A stretch of DNA of 40,621 bases from a phage. The position numbers were made by a program, and so were the translations under genes. The stretch lies in the sequence record PX596819.2; one strand, written 5' to 3'. Each line of letters opens with the position of its first letter. Within the stretch, counting starts at the first letter, position 1. Below, piece after piece: positions 9,001 to 31,866 of the stretch. The notes beneath the pieces were generated by a model that was not told where the DNA came from, did no database searches, and was given only the letters and a program-made list of their open reading frames with translations.

Positions 9001-10468
9001 GGTTCACACCAGCAGCGGCACGTTCAGGCTCAATCACTTCGTCAAATACTTGGCGTGTCTTAGGGTTCAGAGGGTTCTCACCAATCAGGATTGAACCATC
9101 TTCAAGTCGTACACTACCCGGCTCATTCGGAACGTCAGCGAACTTAACGCCTTGATGGCTAAAGGTCTGCTCACCATCCTGAATAGGTAGACGAGACAGG
9201 TCCTGACCATCAGTGTTGCGAGCTGTCTCACGAGCTTCCAGACGTGTAGCTGGGCCAGCGAACTCGTTAGTGTTGCGACCCAAGGCTCTGCCTAGACCAT
9301 CAGCGATAGCAGTCATACCTCCACCGAAGAGAGCACCACCAAGGATAGCCTCAGCCACATGAGCATCACCACCAGCCACTGATGTACGGGCCATCTCTGA
9401 CACACCAGCAAGTGCTCCAGATTGAGCAGCCACTGTGAACATCTTGTTGACCAGCTTACCACCTTTGCCAACCTGTCCAGCGATAGGAACGTAGGTCAGC
9501 GGGTCTACACCAGCACCAATCACACCAGCGGCTAACTGAGCACCAACCCCGGCCTTGGCCTTCTCTTGGTCCAACTTCTGGTTCTCAAGCGCCAAGTTAA
9601 TAAGCTCGGTCAGGTTCTGAGGGGAGCCACCAGTAATGACCCCGTAATACTGAGGAAGAACTCCAGCGTTACGAATCTGGTCCAGCTCCTCACGAGACCA
9701 CTTATGGTTGTTCCATCGTGTCGGGTTAAACACATCGCCAATGACATCAAGTGAGTCCTCGGTCTGACCAGCGCGGATAGCCACCCCGACCATAGAGTTC
9801 TTCACTTCAGCTTCTGTAGCCGCGCCGAAACCGAACCACGTAGAGCGATCCTCTCGTTCCTGCATGGTCTCGCCAGTAGATTTATAGAACATCTCACCGA
9901 ACGATTCGTTAGGAGCTTCAGGTGATTGACCCTCAATGTTTAGACCAGCAGCGGTCGGAAGGTTCTCGCCCAGAGCTACTTTAGGTTTCGCCTTTAATCC
10001 TTCCGTGAGTGCGTCAAATACGTTAGCGCTTACTGGTGGAGTCTTTGGGCTAATGCCATTGAGTGCTCGTGCGACTCCCTTCCGATAGACTTCAGGGTCG
10101 TACCTGGAGCCTGTCTCGTGGTAGCCGATAGCTTGAGCCAGAGAAGACAGGGTGTCAGGGTCCGATAGGTCGAGACTCTGGGTAGCTGGAATACCAGTCG
10201 CAGCAACCACTGAGTTAATATAAGACTGAGTGTCGTTCTCGTTAGGAGGAGCCCATCGGTTGATAATCTTCTCGATGGAGTCATAACCTTGGCGACCGTA
10301 GCTTTGAAGGTTTTTCGCTAATGCTCTTACTCCTGATTCAGGACTATCGAAGATAACGAATGCACCATCATCGCCCACAGCACCTTCCCATTGGTCCTTA
10401 CTTACCCGGAGGTTACCCAGATTATTATTGCGAATACCACGAGTCGCCATTATGTTACTCCTTACCAA
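6062..10468 (-). CDS. gp16: Internal virion protein D (gp16) with N-terminal lytic transglycosylase-like domain
   Basis: 1468 aa; N-terminus (GIRNNNLGNLR.., SPESGVRALAKNL) resembles the T7 gp16 transglycosylase domain; long coiled-coil segment mid-protein; position after gp15. Confidence 0.9.
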   Translation of the reverse strand: MVRSNIMATRGIRNNNLGNLRVSKDQWEGAVGDDGAFVIFDSPESGVRALAKNLQSYGRQGYDSIEKIINRWAPPNENDTQSYINSVVAATGIPATQSLDLSDPDTLSSLAQAIGYHETGSRYDPEVYRKGVARALNGISPKTPPVSANVFDALTEGLKAKPKVALGENLPTAAGLNIEGQSPEAPNESFGEMFYKSTGETMQEREDRSTWFGFGAATEAEVKNSMVGVAIRAGQTEDSLDVIGDVFNPTRWNNHKWSREELDQIRNAGVLPQYYGVITGGSPQNLTELINLALENQKLDQEKAKAGVGAQLAAGVIGAGVDPLTYVPIAGQVGKGGKLVNKMFTVAAQSGALAGVSEMARTSVAGGDAHVAEAILGGALFGGGMTAIADGLGRALGRNTNEFAGPATRLEARETARNTDGQDLSRLPIQDGEQTFSHQGVKFADVPNEPGSVRLEDGSILIGENPLNPKTRQVFDEVIEPERAAAGVNLGGLTEIGLKLLRSENPEIRGVAADLVRSPTGMQSGASGKIGTTASDVFERLRAVDHRFYNDIDDAVTEALKDPYFQTAFWRDNSALREDVYKRVALAIEDGSGNLKSELTPGELKVYDMLKNQFDAKREMMENPAMFGRTDAKSIFPGSRFKGTYVPVVYSSQMKQLYINELGSPEALQEAIKKSWLTSYASRPEVKARVDEMLAEQLRASQPAAGKTVGTASNHRSSVEAARDQMKLDDAATQAIDKVAELKDVLTNAEKRVADREKKLQNSKDRLDSHEAKLKELEEKLAAKPNSKTIPVKIESRKQMIETQKSHVRINTERLDYMKGQADKVRDRITKATTEAESAVAAAKGQKSSVDGQDTTSGETTSGNASQAAPEVTMDMVEKYANDKAYGISHTEQFERSSVMEENINGLVGLENNNFLEARNLFDNDMEITLPNGKQFSVNSLREWDMDKIVPAYNRRINGDIAIMAGTGKTTKEMKDLVETMMNKAGDDGKLKGEVSTLRDTLKILTGRARRDGADDAAFATVMRTMTDLSFFAKNAYMGVQNLTEIGGMLARGNVRAMLHGVPMFRDLAFRNKKVGASEIKDLHNVLFGKELDDSIRPSKQDVIDRLRSYSDLGRGAATALGTAKYYTGELAVRSPLTKVLNGTTNYLLDAGRQGFLSDIVEHSLTGSKRKFDDRWLKTAGISNEQWNGIKSLIRESVTRGPDGKYTIKDKKAFSQDPRAMDLWRMGDTIADETLLRPYKLSNMDAKAYGPIAKTVLQFKNFVIKSINGRTMRTFYNATKNNRAIDAALSTVMSMGLAGIYYMAQAHVKAYAMQDGRDRDYLKQALDPTMIGYASLSRSSHLGGPLGVANILGGIAGYEDTKMLRSSILPRSPTEKPERAIAYGAATSDPVMNVVGNFLEQVPAFGYAANVGASAYNLAGYLKADTRVNERDYMTGMYNTLRELVPNDPITQKLLLGTFEEQGIHIKD

Positions 10469-12737
10469 TTAGTACGTTTGCGATACCCTCCAGTGAGACG
10501 TCATTGTACATCCCACCGCGCTTCTCGATGTTGTCCTCTCGGTCAGCTCGACGTTTGTCACCAGCAGCTTTAGTCCAGACGATACGCGCTCGCTTGTTAG
10601 CGTCACGTTCTGCCTGAGCATATGCGGCATCTTGTTCCTTCTGCTGTTGTTCGCGGTAGAGTTTACCTACAAGTTCTTTATCGTAGCGAATACGAATAGT
10701 CCCTGTAGCGTCTTGGAGGAAGATAGAGCCGTTCTGTTCAAAAACGGACAACTGAGAGTTCACTACCCAAGGGTTGGCCTTAATGAGCTGCTTACGAGCG
10801 GTGTCGATAATGTCTCGACCCACCTGCCACGACTCTAGGTTATCCCCGACAATAAGCTGGTGCTTGGACACCATGCCGATGGACTTACCGTCAGAACCTT
10901 CAGACTGGAACGTTACTGTGTTCTCATTCAGCCAGCGTTGAGTCTGCTGAGTTGCATCGTCAGCGTTACCTGTACGATAGTACCATGAGTCCCAGACCTT
11001 ACGAGCACTTGCGTCCAGAGACGTAGGAATACGCGAAAGGTCCTTATTCCGAGAGTCGTTCTTCAGCTCCTGCCACGCCTTGTCTGACTCCATGCGCATC
11101 TCACGGCTTTGACTTGCAGCTTGCTTATCAGCTTCAATCATCGTCTGAGGGTCCAGACCCATCTTGTCCATCTGGTCGAACGTAGAGAACAACTGAGCTT
11201 GGTCAGGATACAGAGCAGCGAAACTTGAAGGGTCCTGAGTGTAGGCACGACGAAGAGACTCGAAGCGTTTCATCTTGTCTGGGTCGTACTGTCCACGGAT
11301 GACCGCAGCTTGCCACTCACCAGCAGCGTCCTGAGTAAGCGTCTGGAAGGCATTACGGAACGGACCGTTGTTAGTGTCAGCCCTCAACAATGCCACCTTC
11401 TGAGCGTCCTTAGCGGCCTCAGGGATGTCCATCTGGTCAATCTGCTGTAGCTTGGCAGACGCATAGTTGTTCATGTCAGAACGCTTGAACTCGCCTGTAG
11501 CGTCAGAGACCGGAAGGTCCTCATAGTTGGTGGACACGTTGTCCCCAGCCAGACGTCGCTGATACACTTGGTCAATGACCAGTTGCTTGTTCTGGGTCTG
11601 GATTAACTTAGTGTTCTCCTTCGCCTGTTCAGCAGACTTACGCTTTACAGCTTCAAGCAAGCTAGCTTCGGCATTAATAAGCATCTGACGCTGAGGCGTT
11701 AGTTCTTCACCTGGCTGAAGCAGGTTGTTCTGCTCCTTGAGTTTCTGAATCTGGGCAAGACCGATGGTTGGGTCATCCTGAAGAATCGCAGACTGAACGC
11801 CTAACGCTAAGTCTTCCTGATACTTAGCCACCAGCTTGTACTCAGTACCTTGAGCCTCAACCACAGCAGCATTGAATACGTCAGGGCCTACAATCTCTTC
11901 GATGGTAGCGTCAACACCATTAAGGGTGATACGCTCGCCACGGACTTGCTGTAGGAAGTTTGAGCCTCCTGACTTCTGGATTGCGTCACGGACCGTCTGG
12001 GTGATGACCTCTCGTGCTCTCTGGTCCGAAGGTATAGCAGCAGTCGTCAGTCCATCCCGAAGGTAGGCCATGAAGGTCTTTCCAGACTCAGGCGAACGCA
12101 TCAGGTCCCCATCGTTAAGGAACGAGTTCATCTCAATACGAGTGTTCAACATTGCTGTCTCTTCAGACTGCTTGCTGAAATACTTATTGAATGACCCGTA
12201 GATAGCGATGTTTCGGTCCGTGATGTTATCGTTGAAGCCACGCTGGAAGAACTCGTCGGTAGGGTTAATACCCGCCTCTTCAGCATAGGACTTAGCGGCA
12301 TCCTGAAGTCGCTGGTGGCGATACTCTTCCATGTCCTGACGCGTACGGAACTCACCGTTCTGAATCTTAACGTTAATCTCGTCGTCTACAGCAAAGGCAG
12401 CATTACGACCAGTCTTGACTCGAAGTGCTTCCATAGCGTAAGGGTCATCCTGATACAGCAATGTGCCGTTCTGGATAGCCTCACGTCTTTGCTGAGGTGT
12501 CAGCTTACGGATAATCTCGTTAGACCGCTCGTCGGCCCGTGTTTTCTCCTCGTCTTTGAACTGCTTGTATAGTCCAGTACCAGACTCAACGAAGTTGGTT
12601 AACGCCCGAGCCAGACCTGAGTCACCAGTTGGAGCCTGAACGCTGGCTGCTTGATAGTTGACGGCGATAGTTTTACCCGGCGCTCTGCCACGACCCATAG
12701 TCCGATTAGCAAGAGCTGATTCAATATTACTAGCCAT
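10455..12737 (-). CDS. gp15: Internal virion protein C (gp15)
   Basis: 760 aa vs 747 in T7; position between gp14 and gp16. Confidence 0.88.
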   Translation of the reverse strand: MASNIESALANRTMGRGRAPGKTIAVNYQAASVQAPTGDSGLARALTNFVESGTGLYKQFKDEEKTRADERSNEIIRKLTPQQRREAIQNGTLLYQDDPYAMEALRVKTGRNAAFAVDDEINVKIQNGEFRTRQDMEEYRHQRLQDAAKSYAEEAGINPTDEFFQRGFNDNITDRNIAIYGSFNKYFSKQSEETAMLNTRIEMNSFLNDGDLMRSPESGKTFMAYLRDGLTTAAIPSDQRAREVITQTVRDAIQKSGGSNFLQQVRGERITLNGVDATIEEIVGPDVFNAAVVEAQGTEYKLVAKYQEDLALGVQSAILQDDPTIGLAQIQKLKEQNNLLQPGEELTPQRQMLINAEASLLEAVKRKSAEQAKENTKLIQTQNKQLVIDQVYQRRLAGDNVSTNYEDLPVSDATGEFKRSDMNNYASAKLQQIDQMDIPEAAKDAQKVALLRADTNNGPFRNAFQTLTQDAAGEWQAAVIRGQYDPDKMKRFESLRRAYTQDPSSFAALYPDQAQLFSTFDQMDKMGLDPQTMIEADKQAASQSREMRMESDKAWQELKNDSRNKDLSRIPTSLDASARKVWDSWYYRTGNADDATQQTQRWLNENTVTFQSEGSDGKSIGMVSKHQLIVGDNLESWQVGRDIIDTARKQLIKANPWVVNSQLSVFEQNGSIFLQDATGTIRIRYDKELVGKLYREQQQKEQDAAYAQAERDANKRARIVWTKAAGDKRRADREDNIEKRGGMYNDVSLEGIANVLIGKE

Positions 12738-28992: not shown

Positions 28993-29463
28993 TTAACCAC
29001 GGTCGGAAGTGACCAGTTCATTGGTAGACAGCCAGCGTTGCAAGTCGAAACTTGGGCACGCCTTAGGTGCTACGTCATGGTGTGCTTTGATTTCTGCCTG
29101 AGGATACAGGACCTTCAGGTCAGCCAGCTTGCTGCGCAGGGAGTTCATCTGGGCTGGAGTGAAGTTAGCTTCAAACTGACCCTTATCGTTGATTCCACCT
29201 ACAAGGCAGACGCCTACGGACTTGGAGTTCCAGTCCTTAACGTGTGACCCTACGACATTGACCGGGCGACCCTCTTCCACAGTACCATCTCGCTTGATGA
29301 TAAAGTGGTAGCCTGCGTCCAGCCATCCCTGCTGCTTGTGCCACATACGGATGGTATCTACCCCGATGTCCATCTCTGGCTTGGTAGCCGAACAGTGAAC
29401 GAAGATAGCGTCAGTTGACTTGCGTGGCATGAATTGTACTTTACTTCCCATTATTATTTCCAC
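28993..29463 (-). CDS. gp3.5: Lysozyme (N-acetylmuramoyl-L-alanine amidase; gp3.5-like, also the likely RNAP inhibitor)
   Basis: 156 aa; DAIFVHCSATKP, GYHFIIKRDGTVEEGR, GVCLVGGI, APKACPSFD, ending NELVTSDRG, all resembling T7 lysozyme. Confidence 0.93.
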   Translation of the reverse strand: MEIIMGSKVQFMPRKSTDAIFVHCSATKPEMDIGVDTIRMWHKQQGWLDAGYHFIIKRDGTVEEGRPVNVVGSHVKDWNSKSVGVCLVGGINDKGQFEANFTPAQMNSLRSKLADLKVLYPQAEIKAHHDVAPKACPSFDLQRWLSTNELVTSDRG

Positions 29464-29495
29464 CTCTTGTGGTTCCTGATTCGACTTATGGTTGT

Positions 29496-29834
29496 CTAAC
29501 TTACTGAGTATTTTTCAGCCATAAACTTAAGGGTCTCGCTTGAGGTGCGAATATCCCTAACGTCCTCTTCAGTTAGTTTTAAATTAAATGTCCTACATAC
29601 TGAGCAGTCCATCATGTTTTCTTCCTGAGTCCCCAGCTCAAGGTGCTCAATGTTTACGCATGCACGGTTATCACACTTGTGTCTTACGACAAGACCTCCC
29701 GGTATAGCACCATTGGTCTCTATCCAAGCGGCTCGATGAGCACCCATAGATTGGCCACGGAATTTACGTCTACCATAGCCATTCTTATTGCGACTATTAG
29801 TCCACTCGATGCAGTCACTTTCCATTGTAAACAA
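29496..29834 (-). CDS. HNH endonuclease (free-standing)
   Basis: CIEW..NGYGRR..AHRAAWIETNGAIPGGLVVRHKCDNRACVNIEHLELGT is a typical phage HNH pattern; C-terminal LTEEDVRDIR segment. Confidence 0.8.
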   Translation of the reverse strand: MFTMESDCIEWTNSRNKNGYGRRKFRGQSMGAHRAAWIETNGAIPGGLVVRHKCDNRACVNIEHLELGTQEENMMDCSVCRTFNLKLTEEDVRDIRTSSETLKFMAEKYSVS

Positions 29835-30288
29835 CTATCTCTACGACCACCAGATTCAGATGTGACTGGAAGCGCTGTGAGTCAGTCGTGTGCATCTGGA
29901 GACGCTTGTGGTTGAAGACGTGTGATTTGCTAATCTTCACGTAAACTTCGTCAGGCTTGCCGTGGACGATGAACGTCTGACCCACACCAATCTTGTCGAT
30001 TGTCAGGACTTCTCGTTTCACTGTCACAGGAGGTACACTCGAAGCTGGCAGGACCTGAGTTTTCTTCTCACCAGTGCGTTTCCCAGCATCAATAAACTTC
30101 AGGCGCTTACCATACATGGCAGTAATCCAACATTTTCCATCACGAGATATATCCCACAGACCTCCATCAGATGGGTTAGTTGTTTTGCATATATGGCGAA
30201 CGAAGACTTCTTGCCCCTCTTCGAAACCACAGCACACGCTTGTGCTCAAGTCGGACAGGTCAACGATTGTTGCTCTACGCGTCATCAC
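29815..30288 (-). CDS. Hypothetical protein (157 aa), lineage-specific insert between endonuclease I and the HNH/lysozyme genes
   Basis: Start abuts the gp3 stop; 20 nt overlap with the downstream HNH ORF; no motif I recognise. Confidence 0.45.
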   Translation of the reverse strand: MMTRRATIVDLSDLSTSVCCGFEEGQEVFVRHICKTTNPSDGGLWDISRDGKCWITAMYGKRLKFIDAGKRTGEKKTQVLPASSVPPVTVKREVLTIDKIGVGQTFIVHGKPDEVYVKISKSHVFNHKRLQMHTTDSQRFQSHLNLVVVEIVVYNGK

Positions 30289-30737
30289 TTAACTCCTTTC
30301 TTCTTGGGAATGAGTATACCTGAAGGCAGATGTACAGTCGCCTCTCGGAGCCACTCAACCGGGATGAACTTATCGGCATACTTAAAGCCGTTCTTTTCGC
30401 ACCATGCGCCATACGTGGTTGGAGACCCTTTGTATAACTTGGAGCGGGAACTTGAGAACACGAACCGAATGTCTAACTCAGGGTGCTGTTCTTTAATCAA
30501 TAAGTGCTTCTTACGGTCTTCCACTGCGAAGATTCCCTTGGTCTCCACAATGATGCCATTTGGTAGCACAAAGTCTGGACAATAGGTATGAAGGGATTGA
30601 GGGATTGTGTACGCTATTTTATACATCTCGTACTCAGCCTTAACCCCGTTCTTCTCCAGCCACTCTTGGTTTTTTGCTTCCAGTCCAGACCGATAGATTC
30701 CTACCGAGTGTCCCCTACTCATGCTACGTGTCGCCAT
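30285..30737 (-). CDS. gp3: Endonuclease I (Holliday junction resolvase, gp3)
   Basis: 150 aa; HTYCPDFVLPNGIIVETKG, DRKKHLLIKEQHPELDIRFVFSSSRSKLYKGSPTTYG resemble T7 gp3. Confidence 0.93.
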   Translation of the reverse strand: MATRSMSRGHSVGIYRSGLEAKNQEWLEKNGVKAEYEMYKIAYTIPQSLHTYCPDFVLPNGIIVETKGIFAVEDRKKHLLIKEQHPELDIRFVFSSSRSKLYKGSPTTYGAWCEKNGFKYADKFIPVEWLREATVHLPSGILIPKKKGVK

Positions 30738-31168
30738 GTTTCTCTCCTTAGTATCTTACCTATTGTTGGCTGAGACACTCCGTAGATTGTAGCGAGTTGT
30801 CGCTGAGTAAGGCTCGAAGACCTAATTTCCTTGACTTTAGTGTCAGTAAGTTTGGACATACCGCACTTCTCTCCCGGAACATGAGGAGGGTTTACACCGC
30901 GCCCCTTGTTACGCATGTCCTGAAGGTTATCCAATTGGGTCCCTACAGTAAGATGCTCAGGGTTACAACACAGCGGAGTATCACAGGTGTGTAACAGAAC
31001 GCCATTAGGTTCTTCACCTGTAATCAGCTCGTAGGCTACGCGATGTGCAAGCATGGTTTTTCCATTGTGCCTAATCTGACCGTAGCCTTTGTTGTTAACG
31101 CAGCCAGTGAAAAGCCAGCAGCTACCTGAAACCACAAGTCGCTGCTTAAGGCTTTCTACTGTAGCCAT
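30719..31168 (-). CDS. HNH endonuclease with C-terminal HTH (free-standing)
   Basis: CWLFTG..NKGYGQI..AHRVAYELITGEEPNGVLLHTCDTPLCCNPEHL; C-terminal LTQRQLATIYGVSQPTIGKI helix-turn-helix. Confidence 0.8.
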   Translation of the reverse strand: MATVESLKQRLVVSGSCWLFTGCVNNKGYGQIRHNGKTMLAHRVAYELITGEEPNGVLLHTCDTPLCCNPEHLTVGTQLDNLQDMRNKGRGVNPPHVPGEKCGMSKLTDTKVKEIRSSSLTQRQLATIYGVSQPTIGKILRRETWRHVA

Positions 31169-31866
31169 TAGAAGTCGTAATCGCCACCAGAGCTGGAGTC
31201 GTCACCACCTTCGGAACCATCGTCACCGAAGTCATCGTCACCGAAGTCACCATCGGTTGACGCTTTGTAACCAGTGCCTAGGTCTTCATCATCACCCCAT
31301 CCACCATCGCCACCAGCACCATCACCTTTCCATTCCTTCAGTTCTACCAGAAGGCAGGACTCAAGCTGGAGCTTAACGCTTGCACCAGTCGCAGCATTCC
31401 ACTTGAACGGCAGGACTTTAAACTTGACCTTCAGCTTAGACCCAGCACCAATATTCGGGACGTCACGGATGAGTTTAGCATCGGTGTCGTAGAACCGTAA
31501 TACGATAGGCTCGGACTTGCCGTCTTTCAGGTAAGACGCAAAGCATTTAAACTTCATGGTAACAGTACCGTCACCATTCTCAATCCACGGCATGTCGCCT
31601 TCTCGTGGTTCAATAGGCTTCTTGCCACGCTGAACCTGAGGTGGGTTCTTCTCGTGGTCTGCGAGTGCTTTCGCATACGCATCGTCGTGAATCTTCTGTA
31701 AGACATCAATCATCTTACGGACCTTCGGGTTGCTCAGGTCGAATGTCAGGTTAACCTTATGCTCACCACGCTCGTTAAACTTGGTGTCTGCTTTGTTCAG
31801 CCATGCGTAAGGCTCAACGATACCAGCTACCGGAGTGGTGAAAGTCTTCAGTTGCTCTTTAGCCAT
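31168..31866 (-). CDS. gp2.5: Single-stranded DNA-binding protein (gp2.5)
   Basis: 232 aa, the same length as T7 gp2.5; acidic C-terminal tail ending in F (..GGDYDF). Confidence 0.93.
   Translation of the reverse strand: MAKEQLKTFTTPVAGIVEPYAWLNKADTKFNERGEHKVNLTFDLSNPKVRKMIDVLQKIHDDAYAKALADHEKNPPQVQRGKKPIEPREGDMPWIENGDGTVTMKFKCFASYLKDGKSEPIVLRFYDTDAKLIRDVPNIGAGSKLKVKFKVLPFKWNAATGASVKLQLESCLLVELKEWKGDGAGGDGGWGDDEDLGTGYKASTDGDFGDDDFGDDGSEGGDDSSSGGDYDF

Follow-up and report, generated by a model that had tools for sequence, protein, structure and literature searches.

The window, that is, the whole 40,621-nucleotide stretch of phage DNA analysed here (PX596819.2), is a complete Kayfunavirus genome (K1F-like, Studiervirinae) read on the reverse strand. 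CLB_P1, SD6 and other members of this group are about 93% identical to it over 82-85% of 25 kb. The genes of the locus all lie on the minus strand. The gp2.5 SSB (31168..31866) is followed by an ORF with HNH and helix-turn-helix (HTH) parts (30719..31168), gp3 endonuclease I (30285..30737; Pfam Phage_endo_I, E 4.8e-75), the ORF under study (29815..30285), a second HNH ORF (29496..29825; HNH_3, E 9.9e-17), the gp3.5 amidase (28993..29451), gp3.7 and then the gp4 primase/helicase. These Pfam matches agree with the neighbours, endonuclease I and an HNH gene, that the original prediction had assigned to the ORF. The ORF, here called gene 3.2, sits in the class II DNA-metabolism block together with the SSB, endonuclease I and amidase genes.

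The minus-strand reading frame 29815..30288 is uninterrupted, in the ORF list as well as in the sequence, as had been predicted with the strand left unstated. The predicted length of 157 aa is obtained when the count starts at GTG 30288, directly before the ATG at 30285..30283. A product of 156 aa from this ATG to the TGA at 29815-29817 is more likely, because a Shine-Dalgarno sequence, AAGGAG (30293..30298, minus strand, read from the sequence), precedes the ATG with a 7-nt spacer and because the ATG overlaps the gp3 stop. The TGA of gp3 (30287..30285) and the ATG of gene 3.2 have 1 nt in common (TGATG), so the ORF does begin at the gp3 stop. The same stop/start overlap was found in K1F, in the relatives L014, L015 and L016, and in L012, a Providencia-type T7-like contig. 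The TGATG arrangement suggests translational coupling of gene 3.2 to gp3, and the gene is apparently co-translated with endonuclease I.

Membership in the K1F gene 3.2 family

Megablast together with the K1F annotation identified the counterpart of the ORF as gene 3.2 of K1F, a 157-aa hypothetical protein encoded between genes 3 and 3.5. In profile searches the window protein matched PHROG 16385 (E 5.1e-51) and PHROG 15211 (E 8e-40), both of unknown function and both covering only residues 70/87-156. Pfam, NCBIfam and PADLOC searches of gp3.2 gave zero matches, the latter two with nothing beyond one sub-threshold DruB match and one thymidylate-synthase match, which is in keeping with the earlier remark that the ORF has no recognisable motif. 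The statement that T7 has no counterpart at this position was also borne out; T7 gene 3 (10257-10706) abuts gene 3.5 (10706-11161).

The number of homologous protein clusters in a large protein collection was 254. Since the ORF has these homologues, and since its C-terminal half shows a dN/dS of 0.03-0.14 at dS values up to 0.83, it is to be judged far beyond chance expectation. We conclude from these comparisons that the ORF at 29815..30285 is a genuine accessory gene, the allele of K1F gene 3.2 in this Kayfunavirus; the homologous C-terminal domain, the core motif, the slot and a recurrent N-terminal module were all found in it. An exhaustive phmmer search over 1.8 billion representatives gave only 13 matches, and the family is therefore narrow. 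Distribution counts were taken from the annotated phage collection; a locus scan of IMG/VR gave 8 loci only. By tblastn, the C-terminal domain was present in 219 phage records, the hosts being Escherichia, Salmonella, Enterobacter, Citrobacter, Cronobacter, Shigella, Klebsiella, Pectobacterium/Dickeya, Kosakonia, Hafnia and Providencia. In K1F-like phages and in some Providencia T7-like phages the gene always directly follows gene 3; in K1F, PH1061, L014-L016 and L012 it occupies the slot between gene 3 and the gene 3.5 amidase further downstream.

The family is already on record as hypothetical proteins (gp3.2 of K1F and EcoDS1, 3.01 of CR8 and CR44b), and gene 3.2 has carried this annotation ever since K1F was first sequenced. 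Literature searches on gene 3.2 of K1F or Kayfunavirus and anti-defence found neither functional data nor a description of the cassette architecture presented below.

We compared the window protein with three sets of relatives. The gp3.2 proteins of K1F (CAJ29361.1) and EcoDS1 (PHROG 16385; 156-163 aa) share the gene 3-3.2-3.5 slot and the gene 3 stop/start overlap, and their C-terminal domains are about 91-94% identical to that of the window (K1F 91%). However, the N-terminal ~70 residues of K1F gp3.2 ('type B', GWPRGTIVTKCEKDP…MWGAWV) are unrelated to those of the window ('type A'), and K1F lacks the HNH gene that stands beside gene 3.2 in the window. The proteins of Cronobacter phage Dev2 and Citrobacter phages SH3-SH5 (74-75 aa, PHROG 15211) share the slot and are homologous in the C-terminal domain only, at about 73-76%; unlike the window protein, they wholly lack an N-terminal module. 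The C-domain profile also reached a second, distant group in Providencia T7-like phages (PSTRCR_120, PSTCR2; P0164-P0178). These proteins share with the window a variable N-terminal module before a conserved C-terminal domain, the core motif and the overlap with the endonuclease I end, but their C-terminal domains are only 25-47% identical and their N-terminal module types are their own. They also have an additional ORF of 79 aa, Pfam-negative, between the gp3.2-like gene and the amidase (5438-5677 in L012).

The HNH genes around gene 3.2

A sliding identity map delimited a segment at 29440..29876 (minus strand) that is 90-100% identical to PH1061 only; in L014, L015, L016 and K1F it is absent or 56-63% identical. 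Within it lie the final ~50 nt of gene 3.2, the HNH ORF (29496-29825) and a rebuilt 5' end of gene 3.5. Such identity to PH1061 alone is the mark left by a homing-endonuclease cassette together with its co-converted flanks. We therefore read the HNH cassette as a discrete, recent homing-type selfish insertion, separate from the function of gp3.2.

The gene junctions were compared with those of relatives devoid of the HNH gene. The 20-nt overlap of gene 3.2 with the HNH gene, as originally predicted, applies only if the HNH gene starts at TTG 29834; from ATG 29825 (MESDC...; ATGGAAAGTGA) the overlap is 11 nt. This is exactly the overlap of gp3.2 with gp3.5 in the HNH-less relatives, where the junction reads TACAATGGTAAGTAA and gp3.5 begins at its ATG (MVSKVQF). 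In the window the ancestral gp3.5 ATG now starts the HNH gene, and the amidase gene has been pushed away from gene 3.2 by the insertion. It restarts downstream as MGSKVQF behind a ribosome-binding site of its own, GAGGTGG, which is new and was brought by the cassette. For gp3.5, the ORF list gives a GTG-extended frame of 156 aa (28993..29463), which probably overstates the length of the gene.

The HNH protein of PH1061 (123 aa) has a helix-turn-helix-like tail at its C-terminal end (…YSVSETTISRIRNHKRWK). In the window, a TAG stands in place of a Glu codon after …KYSVS, and the last 14 residues are lost relative to PH1061; the in-frame stretch past this TAG (29451-29510 region) still codes for the helix-turn-helix recognition tail, TTISRIRNHKRWK. 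As a homing endonuclease, the window copy is probably inactivated or in decay.

These data bear on a proposal of the original prediction, for which it had named co-occurrence of the two genes as a check: that gp3.2 might provide DNA binding or specificity to the HNH enzyme encoded next to it. In its favour are the adjacency and the 11-nt overlap in the window, and the presence of the same HNH gene after gene 3.2 in SD6, PH1061 and ZH4. These three are, however, the only phage records with a close (>80%) homologue of the HNH gene, and 216 of the 219 records with the gp3.2 C-terminal domain lack this HNH gene. The relatives closest to the window gp3.2 allele (L016, 91% identity; L014, 90%; L015, 74%) are HNH-free and keep the order gp3, gp3.2, amidase with the 11-nt overlap, and the overlap in the window is an inheritance from the ancestral gp3.2/gp3.5 junction. 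The N-terminal modules of the three HNH-bearing phages differ from that of the window. Moreover, the HNH enzyme has a helix-turn-helix tail of its own in PH1061, and in the window it is truncated by a stop. An accessory or specificity subunit of the HNH enzyme was ruled out by the distribution, the insertion mapping and this tail; the partnership is effectively refuted by the distribution, and we regard it as barely credible. The alternative offered at the same time, an independent accessory protein, fared better, as the K1F gene 3.2 family keeps its slot with or without HNH genes nearby. Loss of the ORF with retention of the HNH gene, which had also been named as telling, was seen loosely in ZG49, where gene 3.2 is missing and only 24-aa HNH remnants are left; the converse, the ORF kept and the HNH gene absent, is the rule.

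In Escherichia phage ZG49 (L003, KX669227.5, 1714-2600) the 3' half of gp3 is duplicated in addition, and the HNH-tail remnants are two in number. Either HNH activity has really deleted and rearranged this locus, or the assembly is at fault.

The HNH_3 ORF with a C-terminal HTH upstream of gp3 (30719-31168, minus strand) lies between gp2.5 and gp3, where T7 has its gene 2.8, and shares 19 nt with the start of gp3. K1F, PH1061 and L014-L016 do not have it, and the IMG/VR locus L011 carries a 98.7% identical copy. Next to it, the 5' half of gp3 (30520-30737) is 50-76% identical to relatives without this HNH ORF and 98% identical to L011. From this pattern, the gp3 5' half appears to be either a tract of co-conversion or a target variant immune to cleavage.

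A conserved C-terminal domain and exchangeable N-terminal modules

Structure prediction suggests that gp3.2 folds into a pair of small SH3-like beta-barrels with a Pro/Ser-rich linker between them. The N-terminal module (residues 1-66, 30088..30285, minus strand), the type A cassette, is predicted to be an SH3-like five-stranded barrel. The linker (residues 67-86, …GKRTGEKKTQVLPASSVPPV; 30028..30087) is predicted to be disordered (pLDDT <50). The C-terminal domain (residues 87-156, 29818..30027), hereafter C-domain, is a predicted basic small beta-barrel and is nearly invariant in sequence. In these predictions the five-stranded, partly open barrel with RT-like, n-Src-like and distal loops that characterises SH3-like folds was recovered. 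In predicted fold, both halves resemble the SH3-like small beta-barrels of eukaryotic SH3, KOW/Tudor, FeoA/DtxR-C and bacterial SH3b domains, and the nearest matches to the C-domain barrel fold were RNA-binding barrels of the EF-P, L2, eIF5A and RimP type.

The C-domain contains the core motif Y-x3-S-(N/K)-S-H-V-F-N-x4-Q-M-H-T-T-x3-R-F (residues 115-139, 29869..29943). Its columns are invariant across the Kayfunavirus and Providencia-phage groups, which elsewhere are 25-33% identical, and the window protein departs from it at N120K only. The pI of the C-domain is 9.6-10 (9.7 in the window), and the modules are neutral to acidic. In many phages the C-domain occurs alone, as proteins of 74-75 aa. 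Because the Dev2/SH3-SH5-type proteins have no N-terminal module, the C-domain can be regarded, from the sequence comparison, as the autonomous and defining core of the family.

Sequence-level searches for SH3-type or other known domains were negative. No match to Pfam SH3_1, SH3b (SH3_3/SH3_5) or another SH3-type family was found at E up to 10 in the window protein and 31 members. Neither a Pfam FeoA match nor a link to metal transport or regulation was found that would place gp3.2 with FeoA or the DtxR C-terminal SH3-like domain. A fold search of the viral structure library (BFVD) returned family members only, all uncharacterised. Several weak matches were rejected. The top hit of the C-domain profile in a PDB sequence search (E 0.075, to cilia proteins) is meaningless. 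When 32 diverse members were searched against Pfam with an E cut-off of 10, only scattered sub-threshold matches appeared (Imm11 in 5, best E 0.037; CFAP95), none of them in the Providencia group. The seven matching stretches in P0132 (6027 aa) are summed noise from a repetitive Ig-like protein, with per-domain scores of ~0 bits.

Nei-Gojobori dN/dS values were calculated among the window, L014, L015 and L016. They were 0.03-0.14 for the C-domain (dS 0.45-0.83 for most pairs), 0.50-0.73 for the N-terminal module and 0.08-0.18 for gp3. Thus, the C-domain is under very strong purifying selection and the N-terminal module is fast-evolving, 5-10 times faster than the C-domain at non-synonymous sites. 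In the same genome pairs the C-domain is even more constrained than gp3 (dN 0.01-0.07 versus 0.13-0.15). An overlapping DNA or RNA signal was ruled out as the source of this conservation: the synonymous divergence of the C-domain equals that of gp3, and the constraint therefore acts at the protein level, not at the DNA level.

Between the window and L014, dS was 0.09 in the module, 0.66 in the C-domain and 0.76 in gp3. This jump from 0.09 to 0.66, together with a switch of the identity profile within the linker, shows that the N-terminal module came by recombination, with the gp3/gp3.2 boundary and the linker as joints. L011 shows this too: its upstream HNH gene and gp3 are 98-99% identical to the window, yet its gene 3.2 combines a module of type E with a C-domain of 74% identity. 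CLB_P1, the nearest genome to the window overall, has a gp3.2 form devoid of the N-terminal part.

We observed at least six well-populated module types, with no BLAST similarity to each other and with hhalign probabilities all <5%. Remote homology between module types, and an internal duplication relating module and C-domain, were rejected on the same hhalign values. Among the 178 protein clusters retrieved, 68 had type B (as in K1F), 43 type A (as in the window), 17 type D (as in ZH4), 12 type C (as in PH1061), 10 type F (as in the Providencia group) and 9 type E. Singletons were also present, and in 8 proteins, including the 74-75 aa Dev2 type, the module is absent or a remnant. Every module type occurs once per genome and at the gene 3.2 locus only. 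Four metagenomic proteins of 220-227 aa, P0034, P0038, P0104 and P0124, carry two modules in tandem before the invariant C-domain (A+C, B+A, B+C and B+C, respectively). P0121 resembles a B-module with a frameshift; in P0123, P0143 and P0163 the B-module has internal deletions.

Type A was found in 10 phage records, mostly of Enterobacter phages, at up to 56% identity to the window, and the closest matches are metagenomic (85-90%). By these matches, the window protein is a new member of the family with a module variant otherwise mainly known from metagenomes and Enterobacter phages. The modules keep a constant hydrophobic core and differ in their loops. The barrel core of type A is fixed (G24, V27, F28, W44, S47, D49, G50 and W53). 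Variability is highest in loops 8-25 and 34-42 (1.7-1.8 bits, versus 0.2 for the C-domain); these correspond to the RT and n-Src loops, with which canonical SH3 domains face their ligands. We also considered that the N-terminal half is a non-coding or junk extension. This was ruled out by its confident predicted fold, the invariant core in 42 homologues and a dN/dS <1.

Possible functions of gp3.2

One domain of gp3.2 is conserved above a neighbouring essential-type enzyme and the other consists of exchangeable, fast-evolving cassettes, sometimes in tandem; proteins at the host-phage interface are expected to evolve in this way. We tentatively favour the reading that gp3.2 is an adaptor, in which the conserved C-domain is the anchor and the variable N-terminal module binds a host factor, a target of defence or takeover. 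The invariant basic C-domain would dock on a target that is invariant across hosts or phages, either nucleic acid or one of the core machines that serve DNA metabolism or gene expression. The exchangeable module would supply a second, fast-evolving specificity, most plausibly for a strain-variable host factor involved in defence or takeover. Such a protein would be an intracellular analogue of the 'conserved anchor plus swappable specificity domain' design. A more specific form, in which the modules neutralise or recruit strain-specific host factors in counter-defence or host takeover and are swapped by recombination in the linker, is conceivable but on balance rather unlikely. If true, it would be a kind of modularity not described before in T7-like phages, an intracellular equivalent of that of receptor-binding proteins.

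By analogy only, the evolutionary logic is that of phage receptor-binding proteins and polymorphic toxins, which likewise combine an invariant domain with linker-recombined cassettes and tandem arrays. Unlike them, gp3.2 is a small, presumably cytoplasmic class II product with its anchor at the C-terminus, and it has no structural or sequence relation to them. In size, neighbourhood, presumed expression time and accessory nature it resembles the small class II host-interaction proteins of T7 (gp1.2, gp2, gp5.5, gp5.7 and gp5.9), but homology to these was not detected and T7 is devoid of gene 3.2. Two observations count against every functional reading, namely the module dN/dS <1 and the absence of gene 3.2 from ZG49. 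Because of these, and because the function is putative, any role of gp3.2 is conditional.

The main rival to the adaptor is a nucleic-acid accessory factor, in which the basic SH3-like C-domain (compare Sso7d, KOW and Tudor) binds DNA or RNA and assists or modulates endonuclease I, with the N-terminal modules as minor add-ons. The pI of 9.6-10 and the similarity of the predicted barrel to RNA-binding barrels speak for it, as do the stand-alone C-domain of many phages, the location within the class II DNA-metabolism block, and the strict post-gene 3 slot with its stop/start overlap in two phage lineages. However, gene overlaps are common in T7-like genomes anyway, and T7 and most Studiervirinae manage without gene 3.2. 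The C-domain is also more conserved than gp3, and the gp3 5' half is mosaic, so that there is no sign of co-variation with gp3. This reading further leaves the retention, tandem duplication and exchange of folded N-terminal modules unexplained, and we consider it unlikely. If the C-domain were nevertheless a nucleic-acid-binding cofactor of endonuclease I, it would be an extra component of the T7-type recombination and DNA-breakdown machinery that is missing in T7 itself. It is improbable that the C-domain acts as a sponge for small molecules or as an enzyme, for instance against host immune-signalling nucleotides; in such a role, the invariant polar residues of the motif (S, N, S, H, N, Q, H, T, T and R) would make up a ligand-binding or active site, perhaps shared between the subunits of a dimer. 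That gp3.2 helps the neighbouring gp3.5 amidase as an SH3b-like protein binding the cell wall is very improbable: the Pfam searches gave zero matches to SH3_3, SH3_5 or other SH3b families, no signal peptide is apparent, and hypervariable modules would be senseless against the invariant peptidoglycan of enterobacteria. T7 lysozyme, moreover, works without a comparable SH3b-like partner protein.

Returning to the adaptor, Kayfunaviruses such as K1F, CLB_P1 and LM33_P1 serve in phage therapy and engineering, where a determinant that possibly modulates strain-specific success would be of practical value. K1F is genetically tractable, which makes the proposal for gene 3.2 cheap to test.

Two phage records, MT350292.1 and PQ039553.1, were noted for odd gp3/gp3.2 loci. 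'Enterococcus phage EFA-1' has a Kayfunavirus-type gp3/gp3.2 locus, which makes its host label doubtful. Enterobacter phage vB_Ecl_MII_002 (78,696 bp) carries the gp3/gp3.2 locus twice, probably as a result of a dimeric assembly.
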